A stretch of DNA of 64,000 bases from Candidatus Micrarchaeia archaeon (GCA_035533215.1 DATLUG010000028.1:7680-71679), one strand, 5' to 3'. Counted from the stretch's first letter, positions 5,844-44,148 are shown. Numbers and translations are program-made. The notes: a model not told the origin generated them from the letters alone.

Positions 5844-6629
5844 CGTAGGGCGGGGGGGCCCGGCCCGGGGCGGCCGGGCTCCGACCGAAGGGAGGCCGAT
5901 GCGGAGGGCGGCGGCGCGCTGGGCCGCGTTGCCCGGCGCGAATCCGATGGCCTCCCCGGGGTCCGCCAGCCGGGGGGGTGCGAGCGACGACACCGGCCAG
6001 GTTCCAGGCGTCGAACGCCCGACCCACGTGGGCACGGAGCGGGCGCAGGGCCGCCGCCTCCACGCGCTCTGGGCCGGGTCCGACGACCGGCACCGGCCGG
6101 GCCGGCCGGTGCCGGGGTCCGCGTCCAAGGTCCCGGTGGTCATGGTCCGCTCCGGGTCGTCCAGCACCCCGGTGGACTCGGCGCGGCCGGTTCCTTGGGC
6201 CAGGTCGGCGCGGGCCAGCACCGGGGGGTCCGCGCAGCGGGTCACGGGGGGCCCGCCGCGGGTTGCGGCGACGGCGGGCGACGGGCGGCCGCCCCGGTTG
6301 GCCCCGCCGGCACCGACCCAAGGAGCCCTCGACCTGGCTCGCCGGCGCGTTGGTCGATCCGCGGGATCGGCGTCCTGGGCGGGGTCGAGATCCCTCCCGG
6401 GAGACGTCGACGCTCCGCCCGTCGCCGGCGGCGCAGGCCGCCAGGCGCGGTCCTCGGGTCGCGCCGGAGCCACGGCGTCATCCGCCCGGGCCGTCACGAG
6501 CCTCGCCGGCTCTCAGCCGGATCGCTCGGCGAAAGAGCCCCGCGCGGGCGGCCGGTATCCTGTCCCGGGGCAGGCGGAGGCGGGTGGTCCCGAGGGAGCG
6601 CATGCGGCGCCCCGTCCAGAGGCGTGTGC

Positions 6630-16217: not shown

Positions 16218-18236
16218 GTGAGAGGTGCGTCGATGGCGGGGGCTGAGCCGCCGGCGGAGGAGCCGGACCCGGCGCCTGGGCCGCCCGACCAGCCCGTCGT
16301 GCTGCCGGCCTGGGCCGAGGCCAGCCTCGGCGCCTTTGGCCTGGAGGGGGAGGACCAGGGCTCGGCGCCCGAGCCCACACCGGGCGACGCCGTGCCGCCC
16401 CGCCCCAGAGGGCCGGCGGCGGAGGACCGTCCGGGCTCCGTGCCCGCGGCGGCGGCGACGCCGCCCTTGGCGCCGCGGCCGCCCGCGACCCCGCCGCTCC
16501 CAGCCCGCCCCCCGGCCGCGGAGGCCAACCCGTGGCCGGAGCCGGCGTCGACCCGGAAGGGGATGCGGGAGCCCACCCCGCCGCCGCCGGCGCCGGACCC
16601 GGCTCCGGTCCCGGCGCAGCCGCCCGCCGCTGCGCCCGCCACCCTGCTCGGGCGTGCCGCCTGGAGCGTGCGCACCCTCCCGGGCCCCGCCGCCACCCGG
16701 ACCGCGGCGCCGGGATCGCCGGCGGTGCCGGCGGCCGCGCCGACGGCCGCGCCGACGGCCGCCCCGCCCCGCCCCCACGGTGTTGCGCGCCCGCCGGTTG
16801 CGACACCGACGCCCCCGCGTGCGCCGAAGCCCGCGGCCCGCGAGCGGAGCGCTGCCCTGCGGGTGGCCCTGCCGGTGGCGCTGGCCCTGGCGGCGGCGGC
16901 CGGGGCGGTGGCGGCGCTCACCCGGTTCTGGGTCGACGTCACCGTCGGCCGCGACCTCACCCTGCTGCCCGTGCTCCGGCTGCAGGACGCCGGCACCCTC
17001 AGCCTCGCCGCCCTCTGGCACCCGATCGAGGGCAGCCGGATCCTCGCTCCGGAGCTGGTCGTGTTCGGTCTCCTGCCCGCCGTCCACCTGGACACCCGGG
17101 CGGAGATGCTGGTCGGCATCCTCCTCCTCATCGCCACCGCCTTCGCGCTCTTCGCCGTCTGGGGCGAGCCGGGACGGTGGCGGTGGTGGTGGTTCCTGCC
17201 GGCGGTCCCGCTGGTCTGCAGCCTGGTCCAGCTCCCGACCCTGCTGCTCGGCTTCCGGTTCGGCGACGCCCTGGCGCTGGCGGGGGTGGCGGCCGCCCTG
17301 GCGATGCTGAACCGCGACCAGCTCGAGCTCGGCGCCTTCCTCTTCGCGGTGCTGGGCGCCGGGATCGCCACCTGCTCCTCCTTCGAGGGCCTCTTCGTCT
17401 GGCCGGCGGGGCTGGTGGTCCTCGCCGGTCGACAGGGAAGCTGGATCGCCCGCGCGGGCTGGGCGCTCTGCGGGGCGGGGGCGGCGGTGGCGGTGCTCTG
17501 GCACCTCGACCTCGCCGGGCTCGGCGGGCCCGGGCTCCCCGTCTTCTGGGACCAGCCGGGTCGGGCCCTCGGCTTTCTCCTCACCTCGATCGGGTCGGTG
17601 CTGCCGGCCCCCGGCGGCGGGATCTTCGGGGTCTGGCAGGCCGAGGTGCTGGGCGGAGCGATCCTGCTCGCGGCGGTGCTGGTCGCCTGCTGCTGGCGGC
17701 TGCGCCGCCCCGACGACCGGCGGCTGGCCGGGGTGTCCGGGGTGGCCGCCTTCGCGATCCTGGTGGACCTCGCCGAGACCGCCGGCCACGCCCAGTTCGG
17801 GGTCGCCACCGCCATCGGGTCCCGCTACCTGGCGGTCAACCTCCTCCTGCTCGCCGCGGTCTACCTCGGGGTGGTGACGGCGCTGGGCGGGGCGCGGGCG
17901 CTCCCGCCCACCGCCGCCCCCGCCCCCGCCGGCGGCGCGCTCGGGAGGCGCGGCGGCGCCCTGGCCCGCGGCAGGGCCGCGTCGGCCACGATCGCCACCG
18001 GCGCGGCGGTCGCGCTGGTCCTGGCCGCGGTTGCGCTCGGGGTGCCGGCCGGCCTGCGCACCGGTGCCAGGGTGCGGACCCAGCGGCTCCGGTCGGCCGC
18101 CGTCCTCGCCGACTACCGGACCGCCTCCGCCCAGGCGATCCTGCGCACCCTCTACCCGTCGGCGCCCCGGCTCCGGGCCGACGCCGCGTTCCTCGCCGCC
18201 AACCGGCTCGGGATCTTCGCCGGCCCGACCCGGTAG
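16218..18236 (+). CDS. Polytopic membrane protein with an N-terminal Pro-rich region, function unknown; possibly an envelope glycan-related GT-C or ligase-type protein
   Basis: 672-aa ORF. The ~200-aa Pro/Ala-rich N-terminus is followed by ≥10 hydrophobic helices (e.g. WRWWWFLPAVPLVCSLVQLPTLLLGF). High GC3 in the membrane portion. Confidence 0.55.
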   Translation: MRGASMAGAEPPAEEPDPAPGPPDQPVVLPAWAEASLGAFGLEGEDQGSAPEPTPGDAVPPRPRGPAAEDRPGSVPAAAATPPLAPRPPATPPLPARPPAAEANPWPEPASTRKGMREPTPPPPAPDPAPVPAQPPAAAPATLLGRAAWSVRTLPGPAATRTAAPGSPAVPAAAPTAAPTAAPPRPHGVARPPVATPTPPRAPKPAARERSAALRVALPVALALAAAAGAVAALTRFWVDVTVGRDLTLLPVLRLQDAGTLSLAALWHPIEGSRILAPELVVFGLLPAVHLDTRAEMLVGILLLIATAFALFAVWGEPGRWRWWWFLPAVPLVCSLVQLPTLLLGFRFGDALALAGVAAALAMLNRDQLELGAFLFAVLGAGIATCSSFEGLFVWPAGLVVLAGRQGSWIARAGWALCGAGAAVAVLWHLDLAGLGGPGLPVFWDQPGRALGFLLTSIGSVLPAPGGGIFGVWQAEVLGGAILLAAVLVACCWRLRRPDDRRLAGVSGVAAFAILVDLAETAGHAQFGVATAIGSRYLAVNLLLLAAVYLGVVTALGGARALPPTAAPAPAGGALGRRGGALARGRAASATIATGAAVALVLAAVALGVPAGLRTGARVRTQRLRSAAVLADYRTASAQAILRTLYPSAPRLRADAAFLAANRLGIFAGPTR

Positions 18237-18281
18237 GGCGGCGGGGCGGTCGGGACTTGACCCCCCGGGCGGCGCGGGCGT

Positions 18282-18977
18282 ATGGTTGAGCAAATGCTCA
18301 AAGCATCCGCTCAACCCGGTGCCGCTGCCCCGCCGCTCGGGGGCGAGGTGGGCTCTAGCGAGGGGACCAGGCGGCGGATGGTCCGGGCCGCCCGGCTGAC
18401 CCTGGAGCGTGAGGGCTTCGCCGGCACCACCGCCCGGGCCATCGCCCGGACCGGGCACCTCAACCAGGCGCTGATCTTCTACCACTTCGGCTCCGTCCAC
18501 GCCTTGCTGCTGGCGGCCCTCGACGAGAGCAGCGAGCGCCGTCTGGCCCGCTACCGCGAGCAGCTGGCCGGCGTCGACTCGCCGACGGGGCTGGTCCGGG
18601 TGATGCGGAGCCTGTACGGGGAGGACCTCGCCGAGGGACACGTGGCGGTGGTCCAGGCACTGGCCGCGGGCGGGTCGTCCTCGACCGAGCTGGGCCGCGC
18701 CCTGGCGGCCCGGATGGAGCCCTGGGTCGACTTCGCCACCGAGGTGCTGTCCCGCCTGGTCGGGGCCACGCCGCTGGCGCCCTGGCTCCCGGTGCCGGAC
18801 CTGGCCTTCGCCATCGTGGCCTGCTACTTCGGGATGGAGACCGTCGCCCACCTGGACGGCGACCGCTCCCGGGCCGCGTCGCTGTTCGAGACCGCGGCCC
18901 GGCTCGCCCCGCTGGCGGACCAGCTCCTCGGTCGGGGCGCGGGCCCGGGGCCGGCCGCGACGGGGGCCGCACCGTGA
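18282..18977 (+). CDS. TetR-family transcriptional regulator
   Basis: N-terminal TetR helix-turn-helix: RMVRAARLTLEREGFAGTTARAIARTGHLNQALIFYHF. Confidence 0.85.
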   Translation: MVEQMLKASAQPGAAAPPLGGEVGSSEGTRRRMVRAARLTLEREGFAGTTARAIARTGHLNQALIFYHFGSVHALLLAALDESSERRLARYREQLAGVDSPTGLVRVMRSLYGEDLAEGHVAVVQALAAGGSSSTELGRALAARMEPWVDFATEVLSRLVGATPLAPWLPVPDLAFAIVACYFGMETVAHLDGDRSRAASLFETAARLAPLADQLLGRGAGPGPAATGAAP

Positions 18978-19867
18978 TCTGCGTCACCGGCGCGGGGGGG
19001 TTCGTCGGCCGCCACCTGGTGCGCCGGCTGGTGTCCCTCGGGCGACCGGTTCGGGCGGTGGTCCGCCACCCCGACGAGGCCGGCTTCCCCGCGGAGGTGG
19101 AGGTGGTGGTGGCGGACGTGACCCGGCCGGAGACCCTCGGCAGGGCCGTGGAGGGGGCAGGGGCACTGGTGCACGCCGCCGCCCTCGTCGCCAACCGCAC
19201 GGAGCCGTACCGGGGCGCCTACGACGCCGTGAACCGGGTCGGGACCGAGAACGTCGCCGCCGCCGCGAGGCGGGCCGGGGTGGGGCGCTGGGTCCTGCTG
19301 TCGGGGCTGGGGACCAGCCGCGGGCGCCCCGGGAGCTACCTGGCGACGCGCTGGGGGATGGAGGAGGCGGTGCGCCGCAGCCAGATCCCCTATGCGATCC
19401 TGCAGCCGTCGGTGTGCTTCGGGACCGGCGCGCCGTTCGTCACCGAGCTGGCCCGGCTGGCCCGGGCGCTGCCGGTGGTGCCGGCGATCGGGGGCGGCGG
19501 CCGCCGGTTCCAGCCGATCTGGGTCGAGGACCTCGCCCACTGCCTGGTGCTCTGCCTCGACGACGACGGCCTGCTGGGCGCGGCCCACCCGGTCGGGGGA
19601 GCCGAGCAGGTCACCTTCCGGGCGATCATCCAGGCGATCGGCCGGGCGATCGGCCGCCGCCGCACCACCGTCTTCGTGCCGGTGGCGGTCGCCCGGGCCG
19701 AGGCCCGTCTGATGGCGCGGGTGCTGGCCCGGCCGCCGCTCACCCCCGCCGCGGTCGAGCTGTTCACCCTCGACCAGACCACCCGGCTCGACGCCGTCGA
19801 GCATGCCTTCGGCTTCGTCCCGCGCGGCTTCACCGCCCACCTCGCCGCCCACGGCCTCGATGGCTGA
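18974..19867 (+). CDS. NAD(P)H-binding atypical short-chain dehydrogenase/reductase (NmrA or complex-I NDUFA9-like family)
   Basis: Rossmann motif ICVTGAGGFVGRHLVRRL at the N-terminus. Has a GTGA overlap with the TetR stop. Confidence 0.75.
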   Translation: MICVTGAGGFVGRHLVRRLVSLGRPVRAVVRHPDEAGFPAEVEVVVADVTRPETLGRAVEGAGALVHAAALVANRTEPYRGAYDAVNRVGTENVAAAARRAGVGRWVLLSGLGTSRGRPGSYLATRWGMEEAVRRSQIPYAILQPSVCFGTGAPFVTELARLARALPVVPAIGGGGRRFQPIWVEDLAHCLVLCLDDDGLLGAAHPVGGAEQVTFRAIIQAIGRAIGRRRTTVFVPVAVARAEARLMARVLARPPLTPAAVELFTLDQTTRLDAVEHAFGFVPRGFTAHLAAHGLDG

Positions 19868-20489
19868 TCGCGGGAGCGAGGCGTCCCCCCGCGCCCGTCG
19901 CCCGGCGCTGGTCGCCGCCATCCTGTTCGTCGTCGCCCTCGCCGGCTACCTCTGGCTGATCCGGCAGCAGGAGGTCGGCGGACCGCCGCCGTCGACCTGG
20001 GCGATCGCGGCCGCGCTGGCCGGCCTGGCCGCCGCCGCCGCCGGCGGCGCGGTGGCCCGCTCGCGCTCGCTCCGGCTGGCCCTGCTCAGCGCCAGCGCCG
20101 TCGCGGGCCTGATCCTCGGCGTGCTGGCGCTCTTCGACATCGGGCTGGCGGTGCTGGCGGGGGGGGTGCTCGCGCTCCGCGCCCACGCGCTGACCGGGCC
20201 CGGCGCGGGGCGGCGGGCCGGCGTCGTCGCCAGCCTGGCCGGGACCCTGGCGGCGCTGGCGGTGCTGGGGGTGGTCTTCGTCCCCTCGATGGTCCCCAGC
20301 GTCGGCTGCCAGGGCGGATCCCCCAGCTTCAGCAGCGGCTGGGGACCGTTGGCAGGCGGCGAGGGCACCGTGTCGGGCTCCGCTAGCCCGAACGGCCGGT
20401 CCGTCGCCACGATCACGCTCCAGGGCGGCAGGACCGTGCGGCTCACCTGCCGTAGCGGCCGTCCCCGGCGGGTGCGGGCCGCCGGATGA
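19860..20489 (+). CDS. Small integral membrane protein, hypothetical
   Basis: ATG at 19860 overlapping the preceding stop. Four hydrophobic helices (LVAAILFVVALAGYLWLI, etc.). The track ORF starts at 19803. Confidence 0.45.
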   Translation: MADRGSEASPRARRPALVAAILFVVALAGYLWLIRQQEVGGPPPSTWAIAAALAGLAAAAAGGAVARSRSLRLALLSASAVAGLILGVLALFDIGLAVLAGGVLALRAHALTGPGAGRRAGVVASLAGTLAALAVLGVVFVPSMVPSVGCQGGSPSFSSGWGPLAGGEGTVSGSASPNGRSVATITLQGGRTVRLTCRSGRPRRVRAAG

Positions 20490-20510
20490 CGGCGCTCCCG
20501 GGGGGGCCGG

Positions 20511-21023
20511 TCAGCCGGGAGGGGGAGGGGAGCCGGTCACGCCCCGCCTGGCGGCGGCACGGAAGGTGACCCGGTCGTTGGCGAGGTAGTTCCACAGGCT
20601 CGCCGACGCCGCCCCGCAGAGGCTGGCCACCAGGTAGTGGAGGCCCAGCACCGTCGCCGCGGTCAGCAGCACCGCCTCGTTGAGGCCGAGCCCGACCAGG
20701 CTCACCGCCTCGAAGGTGAGGAACCGCCGAGGGCCGGCGCTCCCCCCGGCCCGGTCGCGCCAGGTGATCCTGGAGTTGACCGTGAAGGTGACCAGGATGG
20801 CGGTCTGGATCGCCAGGCCCGATCCCAGCCAGAGGGGCAGGTGGAGCCGGCCGTACAGGAGCGCGGTCGCGCCCAGCTGGGTGCCGAGCCCCAGCAGCCC
20901 GGCGGTCACGAAGGCGGCCAGCCGGGTGGGGTGGGTCCGCGGCACCCGGCGGCCGGTGCGATCCGCGGGGGCCCCGATCCGGAGCGTCGGCTCGGGCAGG
21001 CGGGAGGTGGTGGGGGGCAGCAT
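20511..21023 (-). CDS. GtrA-family membrane protein (polyprenyl-phosphate-sugar translocation or glycosylation accessory)
   Basis: 170 aa with 4 TM helices. Matches the GtrA family pattern (AAFVTAGLLGLGTQLGATALLY ... NYLANDRVTFR). Confidence 0.75.
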   Translation of the reverse strand: MLPPTTSRLPEPTLRIGAPADRTGRRVPRTHPTRLAAFVTAGLLGLGTQLGATALLYGRLHLPLWLGSGLAIQTAILVTFTVNSRITWRDRAGGSAGPRRFLTFEAVSLVGLGLNEAVLLTAATVLGLHYLVASLCGAASASLWNYLANDRVTFRAAARRGVTGSPPPPG

Positions 21024-21452
21024 GGTGGGACCGGAGCCGGCGCGGCTCTCTGATCGAGCCTACCAAGCGGTAGCGAACCGGATGGCCGTTGCCGTGGTCA
21101 CACCTGGGTGGCAACCGGGTGGCGCCGGGATGACGGCGGCGGTGCCGGCGGCGGTGCCGGCGGTGCCGGTCGTGCACCGCGGGGCGGGCGTGCGCGAGGC
21201 TCGCCGATCATCCGTCGGTGACCGGCGAGGGCACGGTGAGCAGCCGCGAGGCGGATGGCGGAGCCGGGCGGCGGTCCCGTCCGCCGTGGGCGGCCACCCT
21301 GCGGATCCGGCCGACACGGGCGCCGGCGGGAGACGGTGGCGGGGGTGGCCCGTGGTCGGTCCGGCTCCCCGCACCCCTGGAGCCGCTCGCCCCTGCACCG
21401 CCGCCAGCCGGGAGACCCTCCCAGCACGCGCCGACGCGGCGGCCGGGATCGC

Positions 21453-21932
21453 TCACCGGGCGCTGCTGCAGGTGGCGGCGGGGTGCGATGGGGCCTCGTC
21501 CTGTCGCGCCCTGCCCGACGTCCGCTTGCAAGCCCCAGGCGTCAGTCGGGGCGTTGTCGGTCGAGCCTGAGGCGGGCGCACATGACCAGCCAGGCCGCCC
21601 GCGTGGTGCGGCGGTGTCCCGATCGCCGCACGGTTGGCGTATTCGTCCGCAATCGCAGCGCCATCAGCAGGGCTGTGCCACCCGACACGACAACGGAACT
21701 CCCTGAGGGTGCATGTGGCTTCAGTCATGATGACGGCCCCGAACGCGTCCTCGTGATGCCGATGCCATCCATCTCGCTCGTGCCACGCCTTCACCGTGAG
21801 ACGCCTCCTGTGATCAGGCATCTCGGCGAGCCCACCCCGGCGAGGCTTCCTGTCGGGATCCCCGGCGCCCCAGCATCGGGGTCGGACGAGGCGGATCCCT
21901 TCAGCGGCCAGTGCGCGGTGCACGCGGACCAC
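21453..21932 (-). CDS. Hypothetical protein in a low-GC islet; possibly a gene remnant
   Basis: 159-aa ORF whose GC3 is clearly lower (many NNT/NNA codons) than surrounding genes. No family recognised and no clear ribosome-binding site. Confidence 0.2.
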   Translation of the reverse strand: MVRVHRALAAEGIRLVRPRCWGAGDPDRKPRRGGLAEMPDHRRRLTVKAWHERDGWHRHHEDAFGAVIMTEATCTLREFRCRVGWHSPADGAAIADEYANRAAIGTPPHHAGGLAGHVRPPQARPTTPRLTPGACKRTSGRARQDEAPSHPAATCSSAR

Positions 21933-22149
21933 GTGGCTGCCACCGCGCCACGTCCAGGGCGTGCGCTGGGGGCGAAGGTGGCGGAGTCAGCGGTCTCGGT
22001 TCTGTCAGGCCCCGGTCACGGGCAGCATCCGAGTCCGGCCCGTGCTGAACCCACGCCTGCCAGAGGGAGATGCATCGGCGCAGCTGATGGCGATGGAAGC
22101 GCCCGACGGGGGTGAGGGAGCCAACGACCGAAGGAGCCATCGGATGCCC

Positions 22150-22178
22150 GAGGGGAGGGACATCGCATCCCTCCCCTC
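22150..22178 (-). terminator. Stem-loop 9 nt downstream of the collagen-like gene stop; candidate intrinsic terminator without a U-tract
   Basis: Perfect 11-bp inverted repeat gaggggaggga / tccctcccctc with a 7-nt loop (catcgca). No T-run follows. Confidence 0.4.
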
Positions 22179-22186
22179 GTGCCAGT

Positions 22187-22954
22187 TCAGCTTGCGACGA
22201 CCCAGGCGTCCAGCGTTCCGGGATAAAAGGCTGAGATGGAGACCATGTCGGCGGACCAGCAGTCGATGGTGACGGTGTGCGACCCAGCCGCAAGACCCGA
22301 TCGGCCGCCGGTGAGATTCAGGACGGCATCGTACGGTGCGGCGGACGACGTCTGACCCTGTGACTCCGCGATCGCCGTTCCATCGAGGTTCAGCGTGCAT
22401 GACACGGGTGCGCTCGGGAAGGACGGTGAGCCATTGCCAAAGCTGACGGTCGCTGTCGCCATGAGTGTGCCGGCAAAGGTGGGCGACAGGCTCACCGTGG
22501 CGACCTGGCTGCCCGGGGCCGTGGGCGGCAGAAGGAAGAACGGGAAGACCTGGCTCACGCCTCCGGAGGTCGGTCCGGGGGCTCCAGTCGGGCCTGGCGG
22601 CCCAGGAGGTCCGGCGATGCCAGCTCCCGAACGCCCAGCCGGTCCTTGCGGCCCCGGCGGCCCCGCCGGTCCCTGTGGACCCGCCTGGCCGTGAACGGCC
22701 TTGAGAGCGGCCGCCAACGCGGCTTCCGACGGGAACCGGATGACGGTGCCGGTTGGACACTGGGAGGCCACCGTCGCGTTGACCACGGTCAGCTGCCGCC
22801 CTGGTGCGTTCCAGCAGGCGGTGAGTATGGGTGCGGTGCTGATGGTGGTCTCCGGATGGACGGCCGCCGATGCGGCATAGGCTCCGCTTCCCAGGGCTAT
22901 GGCGGCGGCAGCGCCTACGGTCAGTCGCCGGGTCGGGATGAACGACAGTCTCAC
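22187..22954 (-). CDS. Secreted collagen-like (Gly-X-Y) triple-helix repeat protein with a C-terminal beta-rich domain
   Basis: GTG at 22954 with GGAGG 5 nt upstream. Signal peptide RLSFIPTRRLTVGAAAAIALGSGAYAASAAV, then GQAGPQGPAGPPGPQGPAGRSGAGIAGPPGPPGPTGAPGPT (about 13 G-X-Y triplets). The upstream part of the track ORF (to 23665) is not coding. Confidence 0.65.
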   Translation of the reverse strand: MRLSFIPTRRLTVGAAAAIALGSGAYAASAAVHPETTISTAPILTACWNAPGRQLTVVNATVASQCPTGTVIRFPSEAALAAALKAVHGQAGPQGPAGPPGPQGPAGRSGAGIAGPPGPPGPTGAPGPTSGGVSQVFPFFLLPPTAPGSQVATVSLSPTFAGTLMATATVSFGNGSPSFPSAPVSCTLNLDGTAIAESQGQTSSAAPYDAVLNLTGGRSGLAAGSHTVTIDCWSADMVSISAFYPGTLDAWVVAS

Positions 22955-23375
22955 ATGGTCCTCCGAAGCGATGGGTTGGGATTCGCCCACGCCCAGGGTA
23001 GGCGGCAGCTCAGCCCGCCCGCAACCACGGGTGGATGATGGCCGCTGCGGGGGCGGAGCCGACAGCGGACGACGAGATTGGGCACGTTGGATCATCTCGC
23101 GACGCACGAGACCGTTGGGGCCGCGTGGCATGCTGGCGGCATCTGGGCGGCCGCGGCGGGTCAGGAGTGGGCGTGCCTCTCCGACCACCCCGACCGCGGG
23201 CTGCCCGCGGTCGGGGCCGAGACGGGCGCACCGGGAGGCCGTCACCGAGGCGACCCCGTTGCCCTGCTGGCTCACCGCACCCCTAAAGTCGCGCGCCGGT
23301 GCTCGAGCCGCACCCAGCTGGGGTAGCCCGCCATCACGCGCCGAGCCCGGGGCCAGGATCGCTCCTCGTGCGCTG

Positions 23376-23738
23376 TTACACCGCCAGGCGACCGGCGATG
23401 GCGCCGTGTCCGGCGGTGCCCTGGGCGACGTCCATGACCGATCGAAACGCGTCGGCGTTGGTGACGCCCGGGCGGTGCCCGTGGAGACTGGGGAAGGCGT
23501 GCGTGGCCAGCCACGCCGGGCGCGTGTCGCCATCGACGAGGGCGCCGTGCAGCGCGACCGAATGGAGCAAGGCTGCACCCTTGCGGGCGAGATCACCGTA
23601 CGCGTCCTGGCCGAATGCGCGTGCTCGGGGCCGGGCCACCGCCGACTCCAGGGGGCCCAGGTCACGAATCGGCCCCACCCCCAGCACGTCGACCATCTCG
23701 AGCAGGTCTTCGAGATCGGGGTCCTCGACAGACGTCAC
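23376..23738 (-). CDS. doc: Doc (death-on-curing) / Fic-family toxin with a degenerate Fic motif
   Basis: 121 aa; collinear with P1 Doc (LESAVARPRARAF...LLHSVALHGALVDGDTRPAWLATHAF...) and the Fic-like H-x-x-x-D-G-x-x-R motif is retained. GTG overlaps the antitoxin stop (GTGA). Confidence 0.7.
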   Translation of the reverse strand: MTSVEDPDLEDLLEMVDVLGVGPIRDLGPLESAVARPRARAFGQDAYGDLARKGAALLHSVALHGALVDGDTRPAWLATHAFPSLHGHRPGVTNADAFRSVMDVAQGTAGHGAIAGRLAV

Positions 23739-23980
23739 GCCGTGCCGAGGCGATCCAGGGCCTCGTGCCACTCGCGCGGTCCCTCGCCCACGGCGGTACG
23801 CACGCGCGCTCGATGCTCGAACCGCGCCCAGCGCTCCAGCACGGCCCGGCGGATGACCTCCGGTCGAGACCGTCGCTCCGCCCCGGCCAGCCCGTCCCGT
23901 GCCCGCTCCACCGCATCGTCCGCTCGGAGGGTGAGCGCCAGGCGGACTCGCTCCCGCATTGGGACCACCGGCACGACCAT
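23735..23980 (-). CDS. Ribbon-helix-helix (CopG-like) antitoxin paired with Doc
   Basis: MRERVRLALTLRADDAVERARDGLAGAERRSRPEVIRRAVLERW has the RHH beta-strand and helices. Start is ambiguous (ATG at 23980 or 23959). Confidence 0.6.
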   Translation of the reverse strand: MVVPVVPMRERVRLALTLRADDAVERARDGLAGAERRSRPEVIRRAVLERWARFEHRARVRTAVGEGPREWHEALDRLGTA

Positions 23981-24095
23981 CTCGCTCGACCGCGAGGACG
24001 AGGCAGGAGCCCTCACCTCGCGAGGGCTGCACCCCATCCCGCCGATCCGGGTCTGCTCGGCCCCATCCAGAGATGCCGCCGAGCAGAGCCCGCGG

Positions 24096-25565
24096 TCAGG
24101 CGGCCGGCGGAGGGTGGTGCCGGCGCTTGGCCCGCCATCGCCTCGCCCCCCGCCGGATCCCGCCCAGCCCCTCGGTGCGCAGGATCACCACCGCCCGGCG
24201 GGTGAGCCGGCGCGCCTCCAGGCCGAGGCGTCCCAGCCGGCCCGCCCGGAGGCGCGCCGCCAGCCGGGCGCCGGCGAGGGCGAGCGCCCCCGGCCCGCTC
24301 CTGCGGGTGGTGACCACCCCGCCCTCCGCCACCACCAGCGCCAGCGAGACGGGGGCGTCGGCGCGGTCGGCGGCGGCCCTGGGCTCGGCGCAGAAGCGGA
24401 CCAGGGGCGCGGTGCAGCGGTCCCAGGTGAGGCGCTGGGCCTCGGCCCGCACCTGGTCGGCGCAGGCGCGCCGCAAAGCTGGGTCGCCGCCCAACCGTGC
24501 CAGCGCGGAGCTGGCCGCGTCGACGTCCTCGGGGGGAACGGTGAGCCCGAGCCCGGAGCGGCTCACCATCTCCGCCAGGGTGTCCCCGGCGGTGCAGAGG
24601 ATGGGCAGCCCGGCCCAGAGGTAGTCGAGGATCCGGGTGCGGAACGCGAAGCGGGTCTCGATGTGGTCGAAGTGGGTGGAGACCCCGATGTCGGCCTCCA
24701 GCAGCCAGTTGGCCCGCTCCGAATAGGGGACCCAGCTGTCGTTGAAGAAGACGTGCCGCCCGGTCAGGCCCAGCTCCTCGGCGAGGCGGCGCGCCGCCCC
24801 CAGCATCCACATCGCCGGGACGTTGGGGTTGGGGTGGGTGGTGGAGAGGAAGAGGAGGCGGAGCCGGGGGAGGGTCGGCGTCAGCCGGGCCACCGCCCGG
24901 ATCAGGGTGAGGGGGTCGAACCAGTTGTAGATGCCCCCGCCCCAGAGGAGCAGGAGGTCGCCGGGGGCGATCCCCGGGATGGTCCCGCGCGGCCCCGGGC
25001 CGGTCGCCACCGGGGCCGCCTCGGGGAGGCCGAAGGGCACGACGTCGATGAGGCGTCGGAGCCGGCGGTCGTCGGTGTGGGTGGCGGGGTTCACCCGTCC
25101 CATCGCGGTCAGTGCGCCCAGCCAGAAGTCGCGCTGCTGCTCGCTGGCGCAGAGGAAGAAGTCGCCGGCCCGAAGCTGGGTGTGGGCGGCGGCGAGGGTG
25201 CTGGTGTGCTCGCCCTGGCGGCGCGGCATCGGCTCGGCCGCGAACTGCTCCAGCAGCGCCAGCGGGAAGGGGTCGTAGAGGTCGACGACGAGGCGCAGGC
25301 CGGGGTGGCGGAGGGTCGGGAACTGCTCCAAGGCGAATCCCTGGACGACCGCCACGTCGTGGGTCGACCCCAGCTGCTGGATGCGCGCCCCGGTCGCCTC
25401 CACGATCGCGAACGGCTCGCCCTCGAGGTCGCCCCGGCCCGGCGCCGCCAGCGTCACCTGGTGGCCGCCGCCGGCGAGCTGGCGGGCGAACTCGAAGCAG
25501 CGGATGCCCGGCCCCGCCATCTGCCGCCCGACCACGTCGTTGGCGACGATCAGCACCCGGCTCAC
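24096..25565 (-). CDS. Family 4 glycosyltransferase (GT-B, retaining type)
   Basis: 489 aa with N-terminal MSRVLIVANDVVGRQMAGPGIRCFEFARQLA; a GT-B (GT4-like) two-Rossmann fold is inferred from overall similarity. Confidence 0.75.
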   Translation of the reverse strand: MSRVLIVANDVVGRQMAGPGIRCFEFARQLAGGGHQVTLAAPGRGDLEGEPFAIVEATGARIQQLGSTHDVAVVQGFALEQFPTLRHPGLRLVVDLYDPFPLALLEQFAAEPMPRRQGEHTSTLAAAHTQLRAGDFFLCASEQQRDFWLGALTAMGRVNPATHTDDRRLRRLIDVVPFGLPEAAPVATGPGPRGTIPGIAPGDLLLLWGGGIYNWFDPLTLIRAVARLTPTLPRLRLLFLSTTHPNPNVPAMWMLGAARRLAEELGLTGRHVFFNDSWVPYSERANWLLEADIGVSTHFDHIETRFAFRTRILDYLWAGLPILCTAGDTLAEMVSRSGLGLTVPPEDVDAASSALARLGGDPALRRACADQVRAEAQRLTWDRCTAPLVRFCAEPRAAADRADAPVSLALVVAEGGVVTTRRSGPGALALAGARLAARLRAGRLGRLGLEARRLTRRAVVILRTEGLGGIRRGARRWRAKRRHHPPPAA

Positions 25566-26830: not shown

Positions 26831-27937
26831 ATGCGGATCCTGATCCTCAACTGGAAGCACCCCGCCGACCCGGCCGCCGGCGGGGCAGAGCGGTACGTCG
26901 CCCGGGTGGCCGTCAACTGGGCCCGCCTCGGTCACGCGATCACCCTGTTCGTGCCCCGGCCGGGCCCGGGCGGGGACCCGCGGGCGACGCCGATGGCGGG
27001 GGTGCGGGTCGTGACCCGGGGGACCCGGTCGACCGTGTTCGGTCACGCCCGCCGGTACCTGCGCCGCCGCGGCTCCGATTTCGACCGGGTGCTGGAGTCG
27101 GTCAGCACCCGGCCGTTCTTCGCCCACGAGCTGGTCGGCGACCGATCCCTGGTCCTCTACTACCAGCTCGCCGGCGAGGTGTGGGGCCAGGAGTTCCGGT
27201 TCCCGCTGAGCTGGCTCGGGCGGCGGGTGGTGGAGCCGCACTGGCTCCGTCGCCTCGCCCCGGCCAGGGTGGCCACGATCTCGGCCTCGACGGCGGCCGA
27301 CCTCCGGGCTCGGGGGATCGTCCCGGTCGCGATCGTCCCCCCCGGGGTCGACGAGGTGGGCGGCGCCTGGGACGGCGAGATCGGCACGTCCCCGCGGATC
27401 GCGTTCGTCGGTCGCCTGGTCCGCACCAAGCGGCCGCTGGACGCGCTCTCGGCCTTCGCGACCGTCCGCTCGGCCTTCCCGCTGGCCACCCTGGACGTCA
27501 TCGGCGACGGCTACCTGCACCGCCGGCTGCGCGCCCTGCGCGCGCCCGGGGTGACGGTCCACGGCTTCGTGCCCGAGGCGGCCAAGGTCGAGCTGCTGCG
27601 GCGGGCCCACCTCCTCCTCCTCCCCGGGACCAGGGAGGGATGGGGGATCGTCGCCATGGAGGCGGCGATGTGCGGTCGGCCGACCGTCGGGTACGACATC
27701 CCCGGGGTGCGGGACGCCGTCCAGGACGGGGTCACCGGGGTGCTGACCGAGCCCGGGCCCCGGCAGCTGGGCAACGCCGCCGCGGCGCTCCTGGCGGACC
27801 CCGCGCGCTGGCGGCAGCTGGCGCGGGCGGCCGCCGGGCGCGCGCGCGAGTTCACCTGGGACCACTCGGCCGAGCGCCTGCTGACCCTCCTGACCGCCGC
27901 GCCGGCGCCCCCGTCCCACTGCTCGCCGGCGGCGTGA
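26831..27937 (+). CDS. Family 4 glycosyltransferase
   Basis: MRILILNWKHPADPAAGGAERYV...REGWGIVAMEAAMCGRPTVGYDIPGVRDAV is the GT4 EX7E-type motif. ATG at 26831; the track ORF starts at 26756. Confidence 0.8.
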   Translation: MRILILNWKHPADPAAGGAERYVARVAVNWARLGHAITLFVPRPGPGGDPRATPMAGVRVVTRGTRSTVFGHARRYLRRRGSDFDRVLESVSTRPFFAHELVGDRSLVLYYQLAGEVWGQEFRFPLSWLGRRVVEPHWLRRLAPARVATISASTAADLRARGIVPVAIVPPGVDEVGGAWDGEIGTSPRIAFVGRLVRTKRPLDALSAFATVRSAFPLATLDVIGDGYLHRRLRALRAPGVTVHGFVPEAAKVELLRRAHLLLLPGTREGWGIVAMEAAMCGRPTVGYDIPGVRDAVQDGVTGVLTEPGPRQLGNAAAALLADPARWRQLARAAAGRAREFTWDHSAERLLTLLTAAPAPPSHCSPAA

Positions 27938-30900
27938 CCGGCACCGACGCGCCCGCCGCGGCCCCGGGGGCCGCCGGCAGCGGCCCCGGGCGGCCCGCCG
28001 CCTGGCTCCCCGGTCTGCGCTGGGTTCTCGGCACCGTCGGCGTGGTCAGCCTGCTGGCCCTCGGGGTGCTCCGGGCCACCGGGCTGACCGCACTCCTCGG
28101 CGCCGCCGCCCTCGTCGCCCTCGCCTCCCTGGCGCTCGCCGCGCTGGCCCAGGCGGTGGAGGCGGCGTCCGCCCGGCGGGGCGGCTTCCCCACCGCCATG
28201 CGACGCCACCGGGCCAGCCAGGGGACGAGCGCCCGGGCCTGGCGCCTCACCGCCCTCGCCGTCGGGCTGCTGGCGGCAGCCGCCTGCCAGACCTGGTTCC
28301 GCGCGGGCACGGTCATCGCCAGCGGCGACCTCACCCCGCCCGACGGCACCGGCTGGATCGTCCATCTGTTCTCGCCGTGGGCCTGGTCCGGGTCCAACCT
28401 CGGCGGCCCCAGCGCGCTGGCGACCCAGCTCCCCTGGGCGGCGGTGCTGGCGGTGGTCCATCACCTGGGCGGCTCCGCCGCGATCGCCCAGCGGGTGTGG
28501 CTGACGCTCCTCTTCACCGGGGCCGCCCTGGCGGCGCTCGGCTGCCTGCGGGCGCTGGGGCTGCTCCCGGTCCCGGCCGCGGTGGGCGCCTTCGTCTACG
28601 TCCTCAACCCCTATGTGCTGACCGAGGTGGGCGTGAACTCCGTCTACCTGGCGGCGCTGCTGCTGCTGCCGCTGCTGGTGGGCCTGGTCGTCAGCGCCGC
28701 CACCGGACGCCGGCGGATCCGCACCACCGCGGTGTGGATGGCGGCGACCGCCCCCCTGCTCGGGGTCGCCGACCTGAACCCGCCCCTGGTCGGCATGCTC
28801 GGACTGGCGGTGCTGGGCGCGGCCGGGCTCGCCCCCTGGCTGGGGGGCCGGCGGGCCGGGGCGCGGGCGGTGCGGCTGCTGGCGCTGGCGATCCCCCTGA
28901 CCGTGGTCAGCTCCGCCTACTGGCTGGTGCCGACCCTGCTCCAGCTCACCGCCGTCCCCACCGCATCCCTCGCCGGGGTCGCCGCCTGGGCCTGGACCGA
29001 GGGGCGGGCGACCGTGGCCAACGCCTTCTGGCTGAACACCACCTGGGCCTGGCCGTATCCCGAGTACTTCCCCTTCGCCCCCGGCTACGCCGAGGTCCCG
29101 CTGGTGGTGCTGAAGTTCCTCCTGCCGGCCACAGGGTTCGCCGCCCTGCTGGGACCCCGCCTCCGGCCGGGGACCGACGCGCGCGAGGTCCGCCGCCTCC
29201 GGCTCACCGCCGCCGCCGCGCTGGCGGCGCTCCTCGTCATCCTGCTGAGCACCGGCACCCAGCCCCCCGGGGCCCTCCTCTTCGACGCCCTCTACCGGCT
29301 GCCGTACGGCTGGCTCCTGCGCGAGCCGGGCCGCTTCCTGATGGTGGTGGGGCTGGCCTACGGGGTGCTGGTGGGGGCGGCGGTGCAGGTGCTCCTGCGC
29401 AGCCGCGTCCTCAGCTCCTGGCGCCTGTCCCTCTCCGCCGGCCGGCTGCTCCCGCCCGCGGTCGGGCTGGTCGCCGCCGCCGTGACCGCCGCCATCCCCG
29501 GATTCCCGCTCCTTCTCGGCAGCGTGGTGCCGGACCAGCGGCCGGTCCTCCCCCCCGCCCACGTCCGGGTCCCCGGCTGGTGGTACGGGATGGCGGCCTA
29601 CCTCAACCGGGGCGCCCCCCAGGGACGGGTGCTGATGCTCCCCCCCGACGACTTCTACCAGATGCCGTACACCTGGGGCTACTACGGCACCGACGGCTTC
29701 ATCACCGACATGGTGAGCCGGCCGGTCCTGGACCCGACCGGCCAGGGGTACACGCCCGCCACCGCCGACCTGCAGCAGGCGGTGGTGGCGGTGGCGACGA
29801 GCCTCGTCGACCACCGCTGGCGCACCGCCCGATCGCTCCTCGCGGCGCTCGGCACCCAGCTGGTCCTGGTGAGGGGCGACGTCGCCTTCCGGTTCCCGGG
29901 CCGGGACATCATCTCCCCGGTCCGCCTCGACGCCGCCCTGGCGCGGGACCCCCTGATGACGCTGGCACACCGCGACGGCGCGCTCCGCCTCTACGCGGCC
30001 GCGGCGACCGCCCTCGGCCCCAGCGTCGCGGCCCATCTCGCGACCGTCGACACCCGCTCGCCCGACCTGCGGGTGCTGCCGGTCCTGGCCGCGGGCACCG
30101 CGGTCGTCACCCACCGGCCGATCCCGGGGGTGGTCTCGGTCCGGCAGCTGCCGCCGTACCGCGACTGGACGGTCCGGGGGCGCAGCCCCGAGCTCACCGT
30201 GGCGACCCAGCCGGGACGCCGATACCGGCTGTGGGGCCTGGCCGGCGGCGGCCCGGAGGCGATCCCTCGGACCTCGCGGTCCGGCCCCCGCCGGGCTCGC
30301 ACCACCCTCGCCGCCACCTGGTCGCCGCATCGGTCCGTGCTGCGGCTGACCGTGTCCGGCGGCCCCGAGCTCCTCCGCGACGGCGGCTTCGCCCGCGGCC
30401 CGTGGCAGCGCCGGGTGGGCAGCTGCACGACGGCTCCCGGCGCTGCCACGAAGGAGCTCGCCGGGAGGGTCATCCCCGGCGGCGGCCCGGGCGGCAGCCC
30501 GGCCCTCCAGCTGCGGGCGCCGCCCTCAGCCGGGACGGCCTGCGAGGCGCAGCGCTTCCCGTGGTCGGGAGGGCCGCTGTGGGTCCGCCTCTGGGTGCGC
30601 CACCAGCAGGGCCGCGCCCCCCGCATCTGCCTGTGGCAGTACGTCAGCCGCCAGTGCACCGCGATGCCCGCCCTCCCCGCCGGCGGGGGCTGGCGCCGCT
30701 ACAGCACGGTGGTGGCGCCGACACCGGGAAACCGGCTGGGGCTCTTCCTGTATGCGGACGGGGTGCCGGGACGGTCGGCGACGGTCGCCGAGTACGCCCT
30801 CGTGTCGGTGACGCCGGTGGCGGCCCCCTCGGTGCTGGACCTGGTCGGCACCCCGGTGGCCCGGCCCTCCGCCCACCCGTCGCTTCTGGTCCAGCCCCAG

Positions 30901-31128
30901 GCATACAGCCGCCGCTGGACCGGCCCGAGCGGGTCCCGCCACGTCCTGGTCGACGGCCTCGTCAACGGCTGGCTGGAGCGGGGCCGGCCCCGGCGGGGAC
31001 CGGTCGCGTACCCGGCGGCGCGCCTCGTCCGCCTGGGCCAGTCCGCTTCCGCCCTCTGCTGGCTGGCGATCGCGCTCGCCGCCGGGCTCGCATCGGCGTG
31101 GTCCCGAAGGGGAGGCCGGTGGGGCTGA
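27934..31128 (+). CDS. Large (~1064 aa) polytopic membrane protein with a C-terminal soluble domain; candidate GT-C-type polymerising or branching glycosyltransferase (AftD/DUF3367-like architecture)
   Basis: GTG at 27934 with a GTGA overlap on the GT4 stop. At least 12 TM helices in the first ~600 aa, then a large extracytoplasmic domain. Part of track ORF 27181..31128; the AftD-like assignment rests on size and topology only. Confidence 0.6.
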   Translation: MTGTDAPAAAPGAAGSGPGRPAAWLPGLRWVLGTVGVVSLLALGVLRATGLTALLGAAALVALASLALAALAQAVEAASARRGGFPTAMRRHRASQGTSARAWRLTALAVGLLAAAACQTWFRAGTVIASGDLTPPDGTGWIVHLFSPWAWSGSNLGGPSALATQLPWAAVLAVVHHLGGSAAIAQRVWLTLLFTGAALAALGCLRALGLLPVPAAVGAFVYVLNPYVLTEVGVNSVYLAALLLLPLLVGLVVSAATGRRRIRTTAVWMAATAPLLGVADLNPPLVGMLGLAVLGAAGLAPWLGGRRAGARAVRLLALAIPLTVVSSAYWLVPTLLQLTAVPTASLAGVAAWAWTEGRATVANAFWLNTTWAWPYPEYFPFAPGYAEVPLVVLKFLLPATGFAALLGPRLRPGTDAREVRRLRLTAAAALAALLVILLSTGTQPPGALLFDALYRLPYGWLLREPGRFLMVVGLAYGVLVGAAVQVLLRSRVLSSWRLSLSAGRLLPPAVGLVAAAVTAAIPGFPLLLGSVVPDQRPVLPPAHVRVPGWWYGMAAYLNRGAPQGRVLMLPPDDFYQMPYTWGYYGTDGFITDMVSRPVLDPTGQGYTPATADLQQAVVAVATSLVDHRWRTARSLLAALGTQLVLVRGDVAFRFPGRDIISPVRLDAALARDPLMTLAHRDGALRLYAAAATALGPSVAAHLATVDTRSPDLRVLPVLAAGTAVVTHRPIPGVVSVRQLPPYRDWTVRGRSPELTVATQPGRRYRLWGLAGGGPEAIPRTSRSGPRRARTTLAATWSPHRSVLRLTVSGGPELLRDGGFARGPWQRRVGSCTTAPGAATKELAGRVIPGGGPGGSPALQLRAPPSAGTACEAQRFPWSGGPLWVRLWVRHQQGRAPRICLWQYVSRQCTAMPALPAGGGWRRYSTVVAPTPGNRLGLFLYADGVPGRSATVAEYALVSVTPVAAPSVLDLVGTPVARPSAHPSLLVQPQAYSRRWTGPSGSRHVLVDGLVNGWLERGRPRRGPVAYPAARLVRLGQSASALCWLAIALAAGLASAWSRRGGRWG

Positions 31129-42113: not shown

Positions 42114-43995
42114 TCAGCCGGAGACGGACCAGGCCTGCGGGTAGATGTTGAGGTTGGGGTCCTGGGGCAGCGCACCCTTGAGGTGGGGGCTGATCACCGA
42201 GAGCTGGTAGTAGTAGTCGGGCTCCCAGATCACGGGCAGGTTCTTGGCGGCGTAGTTCTGCTCCGCGAAGAAGGGGGTGACGCCGGCGACCAGGCTGGTC
42301 TGCGCGATCAGGCGGTCCAGCTCGGGGCTCTTGTACCCGGCGGCGTTGTTGCTGCCGCCGCTGCCGATCCACATCGCGGCGGTGGGCAGGTACTGGGGGG
42401 AGTAGGTCGGGGTCGACCCCGGCTGGCCGAAGTTGGCGATCTGCCAGGAGCAGCCCGCCTTGGTCTGCTTGTTGCAGGGCACCAGCTCGGCGAAGAGGGT
42501 GGCCTCGGGGGTCTGGCTGATGGTGAGGTGGATCCCGGCCAGGGTCCAGTCGGACTGGATCACCGCCATCTCGGCGTTGAAGGCGACCGAGCCCGGTGAG
42601 CTGATCACGTTGAAGCTCATCGCGGCGCCGGCGGCGATCCCGGCCCCGCAGTCGCCGGTGCCGGTGCCGGCCTTGCGGCAGGTGTCGACGCCGTTGCGGT
42701 GGACCGACCAGCCGTGGCTGCTCAGCAGCCGGCGGGCGGCGCTGACGCTGAACGGGTACGGGTCGGACGCCTCGTAGCGGCTGAGGTAGGCGCTCTTGGG
42801 CAGGACCGGCACCGGCCCGTAGGTGGGATACGCCTGGCCGTGGTAGATGTCCTTGACGATGCGGTTCTGGTCCACCAGCCGCTGCATCGCCTGGCGCACG
42901 TAGAGCTGCTTGAAGATCGCCCCCACCTTGGGGTTGGTGTAGTTGATCCAGAAGTTGTTGAAGCCCCAGTCCACCCAGGGGTTGACGGTGTAGCCGCGGG
43001 AGGTGAAGTACGACTTCTGGTCGAGGTCCTGGGTGGGCAGGTAGCCGAAGTCGAGGGTGCCGGCCCGCAGGGCGTCGAACTCGGCGGTGTCGCTGGTGAA
43101 GGGGATCTCCTCGAAGCGGGCGATCCTGGGCTTCTGGGGCCCTGAGTAGTTGGGGTTGGGCACGAAGGCGGCGAAGCCGGTGGCGGGGGTGTAGGCCGCC
43201 AGCTTGAAGGGACCGTCGACCACCTTCCACATCGGGTTGGTGGTGTAGGTGGTCTCCTGCTTGGACTGGCCGTCGATGTACTTCCAGACCCGGGCCGCCC
43301 CCGGGGTGGTGCGGTCGTAGTTGCCGATCGGTCCCGCCGCCGAGGTGCGGTCCCAGGCGTGCTGGGGGATGGCGAAGATCATGCTGAGGTTGTTGTAGAG
43401 CAGCCAGGTCGAGCCGTAGGCGCGGTTGAAGGTGAGGCTGAAGGTCTCGGGGGTGGATTTGGGAAAGCTCATCGAGGTGATGTTGTCGGGGATGTCACCG
43501 GGGACGTAGCCCACCCACTGCGCCTTCTCCGCCATCAGGATGTGCATCCACAGCTCGATGTCGCGGTTGGTGACCGGCCGGCCGTCCGACCACAGGTAGT
43601 GCTTGAGGGTGATGGTGACGGTGCGGCCGTGGTTGGAGGAGACCGGCTTCTCCCCCATGCTGAGGTTGTAGTTGATGGTGAACTGACCGTGGTTGCCGAA
43701 CCAGTAGAGGGGGCGATAGAGGAAGTACTCGCACTGGAAGAGGTCGATGTTGTTGGACTCCGGGCCGTTGATGAAGGGGGAGATGTAGTTGCAGTACTCT
43801 CCCGGCGGCAGCGCGAAGGTGACGGTGCCGCGGGGGGCGGCCCGGGTGCCCACGCTGGCCAGGCCCACCAGGGCCGAGCCGAGGACGGCGGCCCCGGCCG
43901 CCGCCGCCGCCAGCGCCGCCCGCCACCGGCGGCGTCCGGGCCTGGGGCCGCCGGCCCCGATCCCGGTTCGGATGCGGTGCAGCGATGTCACCATC
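42114..43995 (-). CDS. ABC-transporter family 5 solute-binding protein (Opp/Dpp/Nik-like); orphan, with no adjacent permease or ATPase genes
   Basis: ATG at 43995 with GGGAGGGG upstream. Signal peptide RRRWRAALAAAAAGAAVLGSALVGLASVG. ~600-aa periplasmic-binding fold. The track ORF extends to 44069. Confidence 0.8.
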
Positions 43996-44148
43996 TCGGA
44001 TCCCCTCCCTCGGCGGCCCCCGTCTGGGTCGCGGCCGCCCCTGATCTGTGGATTGCATGGTGGCGACAATCGCCGCCCGGGTCAAGTCCCGCGGTGCCGG
44101 GATCGCGCCGGTTCCCGGCGGCCGCCGCCGGGGCGACCCGACGAGGGC

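Follow-up and report, generated by a model that had tools for sequence, protein, structure and literature searches.

The window analysed here, a stretch of 64,000 nucleotides (nt) deposited as Candidatus Micrarchaeia archaeon (GCA_035533215.1, DATLUG010000028.1:7680-71679), carries a short islet (21151..24089) between a gene encoding a GtrA-like protein and one encoding a GT4-type glycosyltransferase. This islet is probably a mosaic of horizontally acquired DNA in the Dormibacterota-like chromosome of an uncultured soil bacterium with a high GC content, comprising a Doc toxin gene that has most likely lost its activity, a gene for a secreted collagen-like protein predicted to form trimers, and the decayed remains of a second Doc cassette. 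A horizontal origin had been put forward in the original prediction, made from the sequence of the window alone, and it gains support from the absence of 2.94 kb in the two nearest relatives whose contigs span this locus, from the foreign codon usage of the islet genes, and from the occurrence of DNA relatives of its cassettes in unrelated genomic contexts.

To identify related genomes, the GT4 protein was used to scan 185,579 species genomes. The closest GT4 relatives, with 78-82% amino acid (aa) identity, are encoded by metagenome-assembled genomes (MAGs) labelled Candidatus Dormiibacterota, and one by a genome labelled Verrucomicrobiia. The site is covered by only two close relatives, L007 and L008, since the contigs of L009 and L010 stop short of it, and in both of them the site is empty. 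Their GT4 and GtrA genes lie 137-146 bp apart, and relative to this spacer the window contains ~2.94 kb of extra DNA (21151-24089, with ~25 bp of uncertainty at each junction). DNA homology to L007 and L008 ends at 24090-24094, just past the GT4 stop codon, and restarts at 21129-21150, leaving the conserved GT4-GtrA spacer intact on the right side, including the GCTTGGTAGGCTCG box upstream of GtrA. The right junction is marked by three tandem copies (21126..21173) of GGCGGTGCC-like units of 9-12 nt, of which L008 has a single copy. A 5-nt GACCG was also seen by eye near both junctions, and is too short for a target duplication to be called. The placement of the islet between a GtrA-like gene (20511..21023, minus strand; PF04138, E=8e-21) and a GT4 gene (24096..25565, minus strand; Glyco_trans_1_4, E=8e-7) agrees with the earlier description, both flanks being matched by Pfam and showing a native GC content at third codon positions (GC3) of 0.96 and 0.97, respectively. 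The L007 contig (DATKRN010000059.1) is the one labelled Verrucomicrobiia; it has a GC content of 74%, and its GT4-GtrA region is 83-87% identical at the aa level to the window and to the Dormiibacterota MAGs, so that its taxonomic label or binning is probably wrong.

An identical islet is present in L087, a 147-kb contig from the European Nucleotide Archive (ENA). This contig was rejected as an independent islet-bearing relative, because 99.79% identity to the window over 20.4 kb places it in the same population. A Joint Genome Institute (JGI) metagenome contributes a second strain, L092, with 99.07% identity. Read from GT4 towards GtrA, the islet consists of a hairpin, a cassette of ribbon-helix-helix (RHH) and putatively dead Doc genes followed by a tail, a 250-bp spacer, the collagen-like gene with its terminator, a 160-bp spacer, and a decayed RHH/Doc cassette, again with its tail. 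The three cassettes measure ~0.8 kb each and all lie on the minus strand. The hairpin (24045..24095, minus strand; folding free energy, dG, -34.8 kcal/mol, z = -3.6) stands directly 3' of the GT4 stop codon within the inserted DNA; it does not align to the L007/L008 spacer, and it may now act as the GT4 terminator.

The base composition of the islet is less distinctive than had been claimed. Its GC content is 72.3%, 3.5 points below the window mean of 75.7%. The stretches near 55-60% GC reported earlier do not exist: GC content ranges from 63 to 70% over ~21600-23100, and the lowest 100-nt values in the islet are 63-64%, a much smaller drop. Approximately 6% of same-size segments of the window have an equal or lower GC content, and the window reaches its lowest GC in other places, at 43.6 kb and 60 kb. 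Hence, bulk GC is a weak signal of an islet and was dropped as such, GC3 and the codon adaptation index (CAI) being the informative measures. The 35 other open reading frames (ORFs) of the window have a GC3 of 0.936±0.042 (minimum 0.816). Against this reference, GC3 amounts to 0.758 for the collagen-like gene (z = -4.2), 0.835 for Doc (z = -2.4) and 0.829 for the RHH gene (z = -2.5). The CAI yields z-scores of -3.8 for the collagen-like gene and -1.7 for the RHH gene; taken together, the GC3 and CAI z-scores of the collagen-like gene and Doc span -2.4 to -4.2. The codon usage of the islet genes is thus clearly foreign, and the atypical codon usage noted in the original prediction holds up when computed. 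The low-GC patch at 42-44 kb, the lowest in the window, was considered as a second island and rejected. It corresponds to a 651-aa solute-binding protein gene of the SBP_bac_5 family (42114..44069, minus strand) with a GC3 of 0.97, and its low GC stems from amino acid composition, not from horizontal transfer.

Both better-preserved cassettes have DNA relatives, 76-78% identical, that reside in unrelated contexts on contigs of 67-73% GC, and the donors would probably be co-resident lineages of lower GC content. It could be argued instead that the region is ancestral, that it was deleted in L007 and L008, and that its codon usage reflects low expression rather than foreign origin. If L007 and L008 are sister taxa, as they may be, one deletion is enough, and the bulk GC of the islet, which is no outlier, lies inside the range of the window. 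The phylogeny itself weighs against taking acquisition as settled: the GT4 proteins of L007 and L008 are 87% identical to each other, slightly more than either is to that of the window (84-86%). With the two genomes forming, by this small margin, the closer pair, phylogeny does not settle the polarity of the indel, and one loss in an ancestor shared by L007 and L008 is formally possible. Such a deletion, however, would have had to excise exactly the segment of foreign codon usage while sparing the conserved 140-bp spacer. Moreover, the collagen-like gene has a GC3 four standard deviations below that of the 35 window genes, and the relatives of both cassettes in unrelated, lower-GC contexts are closer to them than anything in the genomes of the relatives. 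The foreign codon usage, the existence of cassette relatives elsewhere and the clean preservation of the spacer therefore make insertion far likelier than a precise deletion, and ancestry of the region is improbable.

The first cassette (operon 24016-23326) had been described as a well-formed toxin-antitoxin pair. Both ORFs are indeed present: a probable RHH antitoxin gene of 81 aa (23735..23980, minus strand; ATG at 23980, alternative start at 23959) is followed by a Doc-family gene of 120 aa (23376..23738, minus strand), the stop codon of the former and the start codon of the latter sharing the 4-nt overlap GTGA. The well-formed, working toxin does not stand, given that the catalytic motif has been lost. 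Membership in the Doc family is clear from full-length matches to many cluster representatives (E 1e-28 to 1e-45, 56-73% identity), and those representatives with a source name are all called death-on-curing toxins. The protein is collinear with phage P1 Doc, as had been proposed, with a shortened C-terminus. Doc is a kinase of EF-Tu, and its active site is defined by the motif HxFx(D/N)(A/G)NKR (PMC4257102). The sequence NHALVDGNKR of close homologs has become HGALVDGDTR in the window, which replaces H with G, N with D and K with T. By-eye comparison with the ortholog in L088 attributes the change to five nucleotide substitutions in the motif itself; a sixth changes L to P in the codon that follows. 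With all three of these kinase-motif residues replaced, the protein has most likely lost the capacity to phosphorylate EF-Tu. Among the top 120 Doc homolog clusters the full motif is kept by 111 and altered at a single position in eight, the window Doc being the only one with three changes. These three changes are shared by P0048, its 98% identical twin. The single substitutions (His to Q, D, N, R or P, Lys to E, Asn to S) are found in P0052, P0053, P0084, P0108, P0114, P0121, P0147 and P0167, and active-site inactivation may be common among chromosomal copies of Doc.

The window Doc also scores poorly against curated models. It reaches 15.4 bits against the Pfam Fic model PF02661 (cut-off 24) and has no match at E≤0.1 to TIGR01550 (cut-off 38.65 bits), a model that the L088 ortholog matches with E=2.4e-7 and 31 bits, itself under the cut-off; nor did a PADLOC scan return a match. 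Among three near-identical strains, all five polymorphic sites in Doc are nonsynonymous, and two of them, L30P and D45E, alter nearly invariant residues; in the collagen-like gene, 768 bp long, no site at all is polymorphic (0 versus 5, Fisher p = 0.003). With its motif lost, its scores under the cut-offs and its polymorphism exclusively nonsynonymous, the Doc toxin is, as judged from sequence, most likely inactive and drifting toward a pseudogene. Compared with known Phd-Doc and RHH-Doc modules, such as those of P1 and of actinobacterial Doc, the cassette retains homology, collinearity and an antitoxin gene that lies upstream and overlaps by 4 nt, but differs in its lost motif, its shortened C-terminus, its sub-threshold scores and a polymorphism pattern that looks relaxed.

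A functional interpretation of the same cassette would see in it a working toxin-antitoxin module, serving addiction or defence through a variant active site and stabilising the islet. Both ORFs are intact and overlap as in functional operons, the ratio of nonsynonymous to synonymous substitution rates (dN/dS) of Doc against the L088 ortholog is 0.33-0.41, not 1, and a His is found one position before the lost catalytic His. That three invariant residues have been altered at once, through six nucleotide changes, that no other homolog cluster has more than one change, and that an ortholog from elsewhere still matches TIGR01550, together with the substitutions at nearly invariant positions, makes a working module improbable, and we consider an inactive toxin the better account of this gene.

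The assignment of the upstream ORF to the RHH antitoxins, predicted earlier as CopG-type, deserves some caution. The 81-aa ORF upstream of Doc exists, and three concordant matches point to the RHH fold, all of them sub-threshold: the ORF matches Pfam RHH_1 with E=0.0036 and 17.6 bits (cut-off 20.5) and PDB entry 6xrw ("RHH protein, CopG family") with E=0.009, and its L088 ortholog matches the NCBIfam aCcr1 family, which we take to be an RHH family, with E=3.9e-5 and 23.5 bits (cut-off 60). The operon as a whole has 77.7% DNA identity to L088-L091. In L088 and L089 (69-70% GC) its context is a dense toxin-antitoxin and defence island, and the Doc cassette of L088 is intact; L090 and L091 are 2-kb contigs. 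The island in L088 (1-11538) includes three PIN toxins, a TacA-acetyltransferase pair, a resolvase fragment, a PRiA4_ORF3 gene and a pair of AAA_15 and DUF4276 genes. Downstream of Doc, the cassette ends in a tail (23215..23375, minus strand) with 66% identity to 21309-21450. Between the two copies of this tail no reading frame is conserved more than another, so that it is taken to be non-coding; a small plus-strand ORF at 23078-23326 was rejected as coding for the same reason.

The decayed ORFs that had been noted at the other end of the islet are present and, on the evidence of alignment, their clear part (Doc 3' half and tail, 21213-21605) represents the degraded remains of another copy of this Doc cassette (21213..21990, minus strand). 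The segment 21309-21605 aligns to 23215-23526, that is, to the 3' half of Doc and the 160 bp of its tail, with 66% identity (blastn, E=7e-19), and the intact Doc homolog P0050 can be aligned to 21430-21604 across a frameshift (tblastn, E=3e-4). Two further segments (21213-21365 and 21417-21523) are 67-68% identical to the 3' end of the L088 Doc gene and the DNA downstream of it, and collinearity extends from the antitoxin region as far as the tail in a three-way alignment. Counting against a complete second cassette, the 5' half reaches only 40-52% identity, near alignment noise, and amounts to collinear traces. In L092, an 11-bp deletion falls inside this second copy. The two cassettes would then represent successive stages of toxin-antitoxin decay, in which the active site of the toxin may be hit first while the ORFs stay open, with frameshifts, deletions and a strain-specific indel following at a later stage. 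The locus thus offers both stages side by side, and it also carries a caution for annotation, in that the "Doc toxin" of the window ought to be left out when functional toxin-antitoxin systems are tallied.

The remaining cassette is the collagen-like gene (22187..22954, minus strand), with a GTG start at 22954 and a GC3 periodicity consistent with its frame. The predicted exported protein was found, with a length of 255 aa instead of 256. Read from the sequence, its GGAGG ribosome-binding site, also predicted, occupies 22963-22967, 6 nt upstream of the start, in a spacer (22955..23214, minus strand) that probably holds the promoter of the gene; scans for sigma-70 consensus promoters and T-tract terminators returned nothing. 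The perfect 11-bp hairpin reported after the stop codon is likewise present (22148..22178, minus strand; dG -30.6 kcal/mol, z = -4.3), extendable to 13 bp and of the terminator type. A hairpin also follows the gene in homologous loci, nearly the same in L002 and with a different stem sequence in L004.

Full-length homologs of this protein are rare. Only five were identified among 5.8 billion proteins, all of them metagenomic, with 100, 79, 76, 64 and about 50-51% identity, and the same five alleles were recovered in a metagenome scan, all in one JGI sample set. In those samples (L092-L100; JGI Ga0307372, Ga0307373 and Ga0307374) the five alleles co-occur, each in a different genomic context. 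Their neighbours vary, and include small ORFs of no known family, DUF2958, a weak rve_3 transposase fragment and an ABC-transporter binding protein. The rve_3 match, to an integrase core (E=0.0014), covers L001 927-1589 (the same locus as L095), adjoining the 76% homolog, and may be the remnant of an insertion sequence. An SBP_bac_5 homolog is located ~1.2 kb upstream of the 51%-identity homolog in L006, L098, L099 and L100. At the DNA level, homology is confined to the gene and its hairpin (22150-22964), reaching 76% identity to L001-L003 and weaker values to L004-L006, with ~10 nt 5' of the start and no more being common to the homologous loci. Most of the homolog contigs have a GC content of 67-73%, and the gene has a GC3 of 0.71-0.75 in them, much as in the window; the ~51%-identity allele, with a GC3 of 0.92, looks native at its locus. 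The dN/dS among alleles is 0.11-0.19, and the window copy of the gene does not differ at a single position from those of L087 and L092. Since homology is limited to the gene and hairpin and dN/dS is low, the collagen-like gene is a self-contained unit maintained by purifying selection.

The encoded protein has a four-part architecture, conserved across its homologs (alignment A2). A signal peptide of 27 or 30 residues (22865..22954, minus strand as for all four parts), cleaved either between AYA and AS or between ASA and AV, combines an R-rich n-region bearing a conserved RRL with an Ala-rich h-region and is compatible with Sec or Tat export. It is followed by an N-terminal domain of ~58 aa (22691..22864) with invariant cysteines C47 and C66 and a predicted short helix before the collagen region; its structure model is of low confidence. 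The latter (22568..22690) comprises 13 Gly-X-Y triplets, arranged as eight plus five with a 2-residue break, in agreement with the approximate count given before. It matches Pfam Collagen (PF01391) with E=5e-4 and 20.1 bits, under the cut-off of 27.2 because the region is short, the repeats themselves being present. The C-terminal head, of ~126 aa (22190..22567), contains the invariant cysteines C186 and C232, and the protein ends in ...GTLDAWVVAS.

A profile of the C-terminal domain retrieved 155 representatives among 1.84 billion proteins. These are mostly 200-270 aa long with the domain at their C-terminus, and at least five Gly-X-Y triplets occur in ~45% of those listed. No Pfam family, BclA_C, C1q and TNF included, matched this domain in the window protein at E≤1 or in 54 family members at E≤0.1, and no TNF or C1q chain was matched when the profile was compared to PDB sequences. 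The structure was modelled with AlphaFold2 from an alignment of 54 sequences, resulting in a head of eight strands with a predicted local distance difference test (pLDDT) of 88.4 and a predicted TM-score (pTM) of 0.82. In a Foldseek search against the PDB the top matches of this model were all jelly rolls of the TNF/C1q type. They comprised, each with probability 1.0, the C-terminal domain of Pgp3, 4-1BBL, CD40L, TNF, the C1q globular head and ExsFA, as well as BxpB. The head domain is thus predicted with high confidence to be a TNF/C1q-like jelly roll, which bears out the earlier guess of a C1q-like domain. An Ig-like fold, suggested by a YxVxLxC pattern and weak matches to LILRB1 and CopC, was rejected in favour of this high-confidence model.

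The model predicts an architecture of the BclA/C1q type, a collagen stalk carrying a trimerising TNF/C1q-like head. To judge from its analogues BclA, C1q and Pgp3, the head would probably nucleate a homotrimer, upon which the 13-triplet stalk would zip into a triple helix ~11 nm long. The product would be a lollipop-shaped, exported protein that binds a ligand at the surface or in the extracellular space, for instance as an adhesin or a surface-nap protein. Trimerisation, export, surface location and ligand binding are all predictions. Two observations count against this account: 13 triplets are short for a stable collagen helix, and the full-length AlphaFold2 model, built from five sequences, is poor over residues 1-130 (pLDDT 49.8).

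Proteins of the BclA type are collagen-like, carry a trimer-forming C-terminal domain of the TNF/C1q superfamily, and are surface-located and presumed adhesive (PMC12357932). The window protein resembles Bacillus BclA, F-BclA and L-BclA in its short Gly-X-Y stalk and its C-terminal all-beta jelly-roll head of ~125 aa, and its fold matches include two related proteins of the exosporium, ExsFA and BxpB. Unlike BclA, it has no sequence match to BclA_C (PF18573) or C1q, a cleavable signal peptide and a Cys-bridged N-domain take the place of the exosporium leader, few glycosylatable Thr residues occur in the stalk, and the host is not a Firmicute. The best structural match to the head is Chlamydia Pgp3 (4jdo and 6gjt; query TM-score, TMq, 0.73-0.74; root-mean-square deviation ~3 A), another secreted protein of three parts, in which an N-domain and a triple-helical stalk precede a TNF-like C-terminal domain. 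The identity is, however, only 10-12%, the Pgp3 stalk is a hybrid of coiled coil and triple helix rather than Gly-X-Y collagen, and Pgp3 is plasmid-encoded in an intracellular pathogen. C1q, the C1q-TNF proteins and the giant-virus collagen-like C1q proteins similarly combine a collagen stalk with a gC1q/TNF jelly-roll head; here the similarity is at the level of the fold (TMq 0.52-0.76, 12-17% identity), PF00386 is not matched, and the stalk of the window protein is much shorter. The streptococcal Scl1 and Scl2 and the Legionella Lcl are also Gly-X-Y proteins exported to the surface, and their NCBIfam models match the collagen region, but with scores of 17-19 bits against cut-offs of 325-500, those of Scl1 and Scl2 being 18-19 bits against 325-400. 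The globular domain of Scl is N-terminal, whereas the head of the window protein is C-terminal, and no LPXTG sorting signal is present at the C-terminus of the latter.

The resemblance of collagen-like proteins to tail fibres raises the question of whether the islet is a prophage remnant and the collagen-like gene a degraded or domesticated tail-fibre gene, a derivation that the original prediction had mentioned. PHROG tail-fibre families do match the protein, with E down to 6e-9, and the Foldseek viral library returned, at TMq 0.69-0.76, annotated phage tail and host-specificity proteins along with giant-virus collagen-like/C1q proteins. The best listed PHROG stretches, however, start around residue 83-88 and centre on the Gly-X-Y region, a few weaker ones extending further, and these matches were not retained as evidence of phage origin; the head fold is matched equally well by the cellular proteins Pgp3, C1q, TNF and ExsFA. 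Also against a tail fibre are the signal peptide and the short length, 255 aa. In two homolog contexts (L002 and L004), nine neighbouring ORFs had no PHROG match, the Pfam families of neighbours in L001, L002, L004 and L006 include no phage-structural family, and a full-length alignment scan found no relative among 2.9 million IMG/VR contigs. The weak rve_3 match and a Peptidase_S24 in L001 could fit a prophage or another mobile element. Beyond a shared fold, nothing supports a tail-fibre derivation, and we regard a prophage remnant as very unlikely.

Signs of site-specific mobility are lacking, as had been observed for integrases and tRNAs. No integrase domain was identified in the islet ORFs scanned by Pfam, no tRNA in the 64-kb window, no inverted or direct terminal repeats beyond chance at the islet ends, and no paired attC core sites (RYYYAAC...GTTRRRY) on either strand. 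A search of Rfam at E≤1 produced a single match, sub-threshold and located beyond the islet (24803-24853), to a snoRNA model of trypanosomatids. In these respects the islet is unlike a classical genomic island, having no integrase domain in the ORFs scanned, no tRNA in the 64 kb and no significant terminal repeats, and it points to entry by non-site-specific recombination. The DNA would have entered the ~140-bp GT4-GtrA spacer of a 76% GC chromosome, a few bases past the GT4 stop codon, by illegitimate or homology-driven recombination rather than site-specific integration. An interpretation of the units as gene cassettes of the integron type, in an attC cluster lacking an integrase, would fit three small same-strand units of which two are followed by hairpins and one is a toxin-antitoxin module, a common component of integron cassette arrays, but is extremely improbable given that no paired core sites occur on either strand, the hairpins are perfect stems of a simple kind, no integron integrase is encoded in the window, and the repeated tail is ordinary diverged DNA rather than an imperfect palindrome.

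The collagen-like protein is an unannotated addition to the known bacterial class of collagen stalks with TNF/C1q heads, located in an ordinary small islet, and current views are not overturned by these findings. The class gains a family that has no Pfam model and for which a curated model is feasible, and Dormibacterota, of which we know no cultured representative, gain a concrete candidate for a surface or secreted protein; a literature search turned up no publication on collagen-like proteins from this phylum. A broader interpretation is conceivable, if rather unlikely. The protein and its ~155 distant relatives may form a previously unannotated family of TNF/C1q-like heads with two invariant cysteines and short collagen stalks, as yet without a Pfam model, in uncultured soil lineages such as Dormibacterota, in which the gene and its terminator move between co-resident lineages and provide a strain-variable surface layer or receptor, so that landing in a glycan locus is functionally meaningful. 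Should this hold, the protein could have roles such as cell-cell adhesion, phage decoy or receptor, and could, for example, be glycosylated by the products of the neighbouring GT4, GT2 and GtrA genes.

The surroundings of the islet form a large cell-envelope glycan cluster with GT2, GT4 and GT-C glycosyltransferases and a Wzt-type ABC transporter. A second indel adjoins the islet. The block 18245-20560, between GtrA and a homolog of window positions 16973-18218, has no counterpart at that position in L007 or L008, and encodes a TetR regulator (18282-18977), an NAD-epimerase (18974-19867) and a 228-aa membrane protein (19803-20489), all with a native GC3 of 0.93-0.97. The window also contains two very large plus-strand ORFs, of 2033 aa (4425-10526) and 1315 aa (27181-31128); part of the latter corresponds to a 1064-aa pipeline call in L087 that matches GT-C_AftD.

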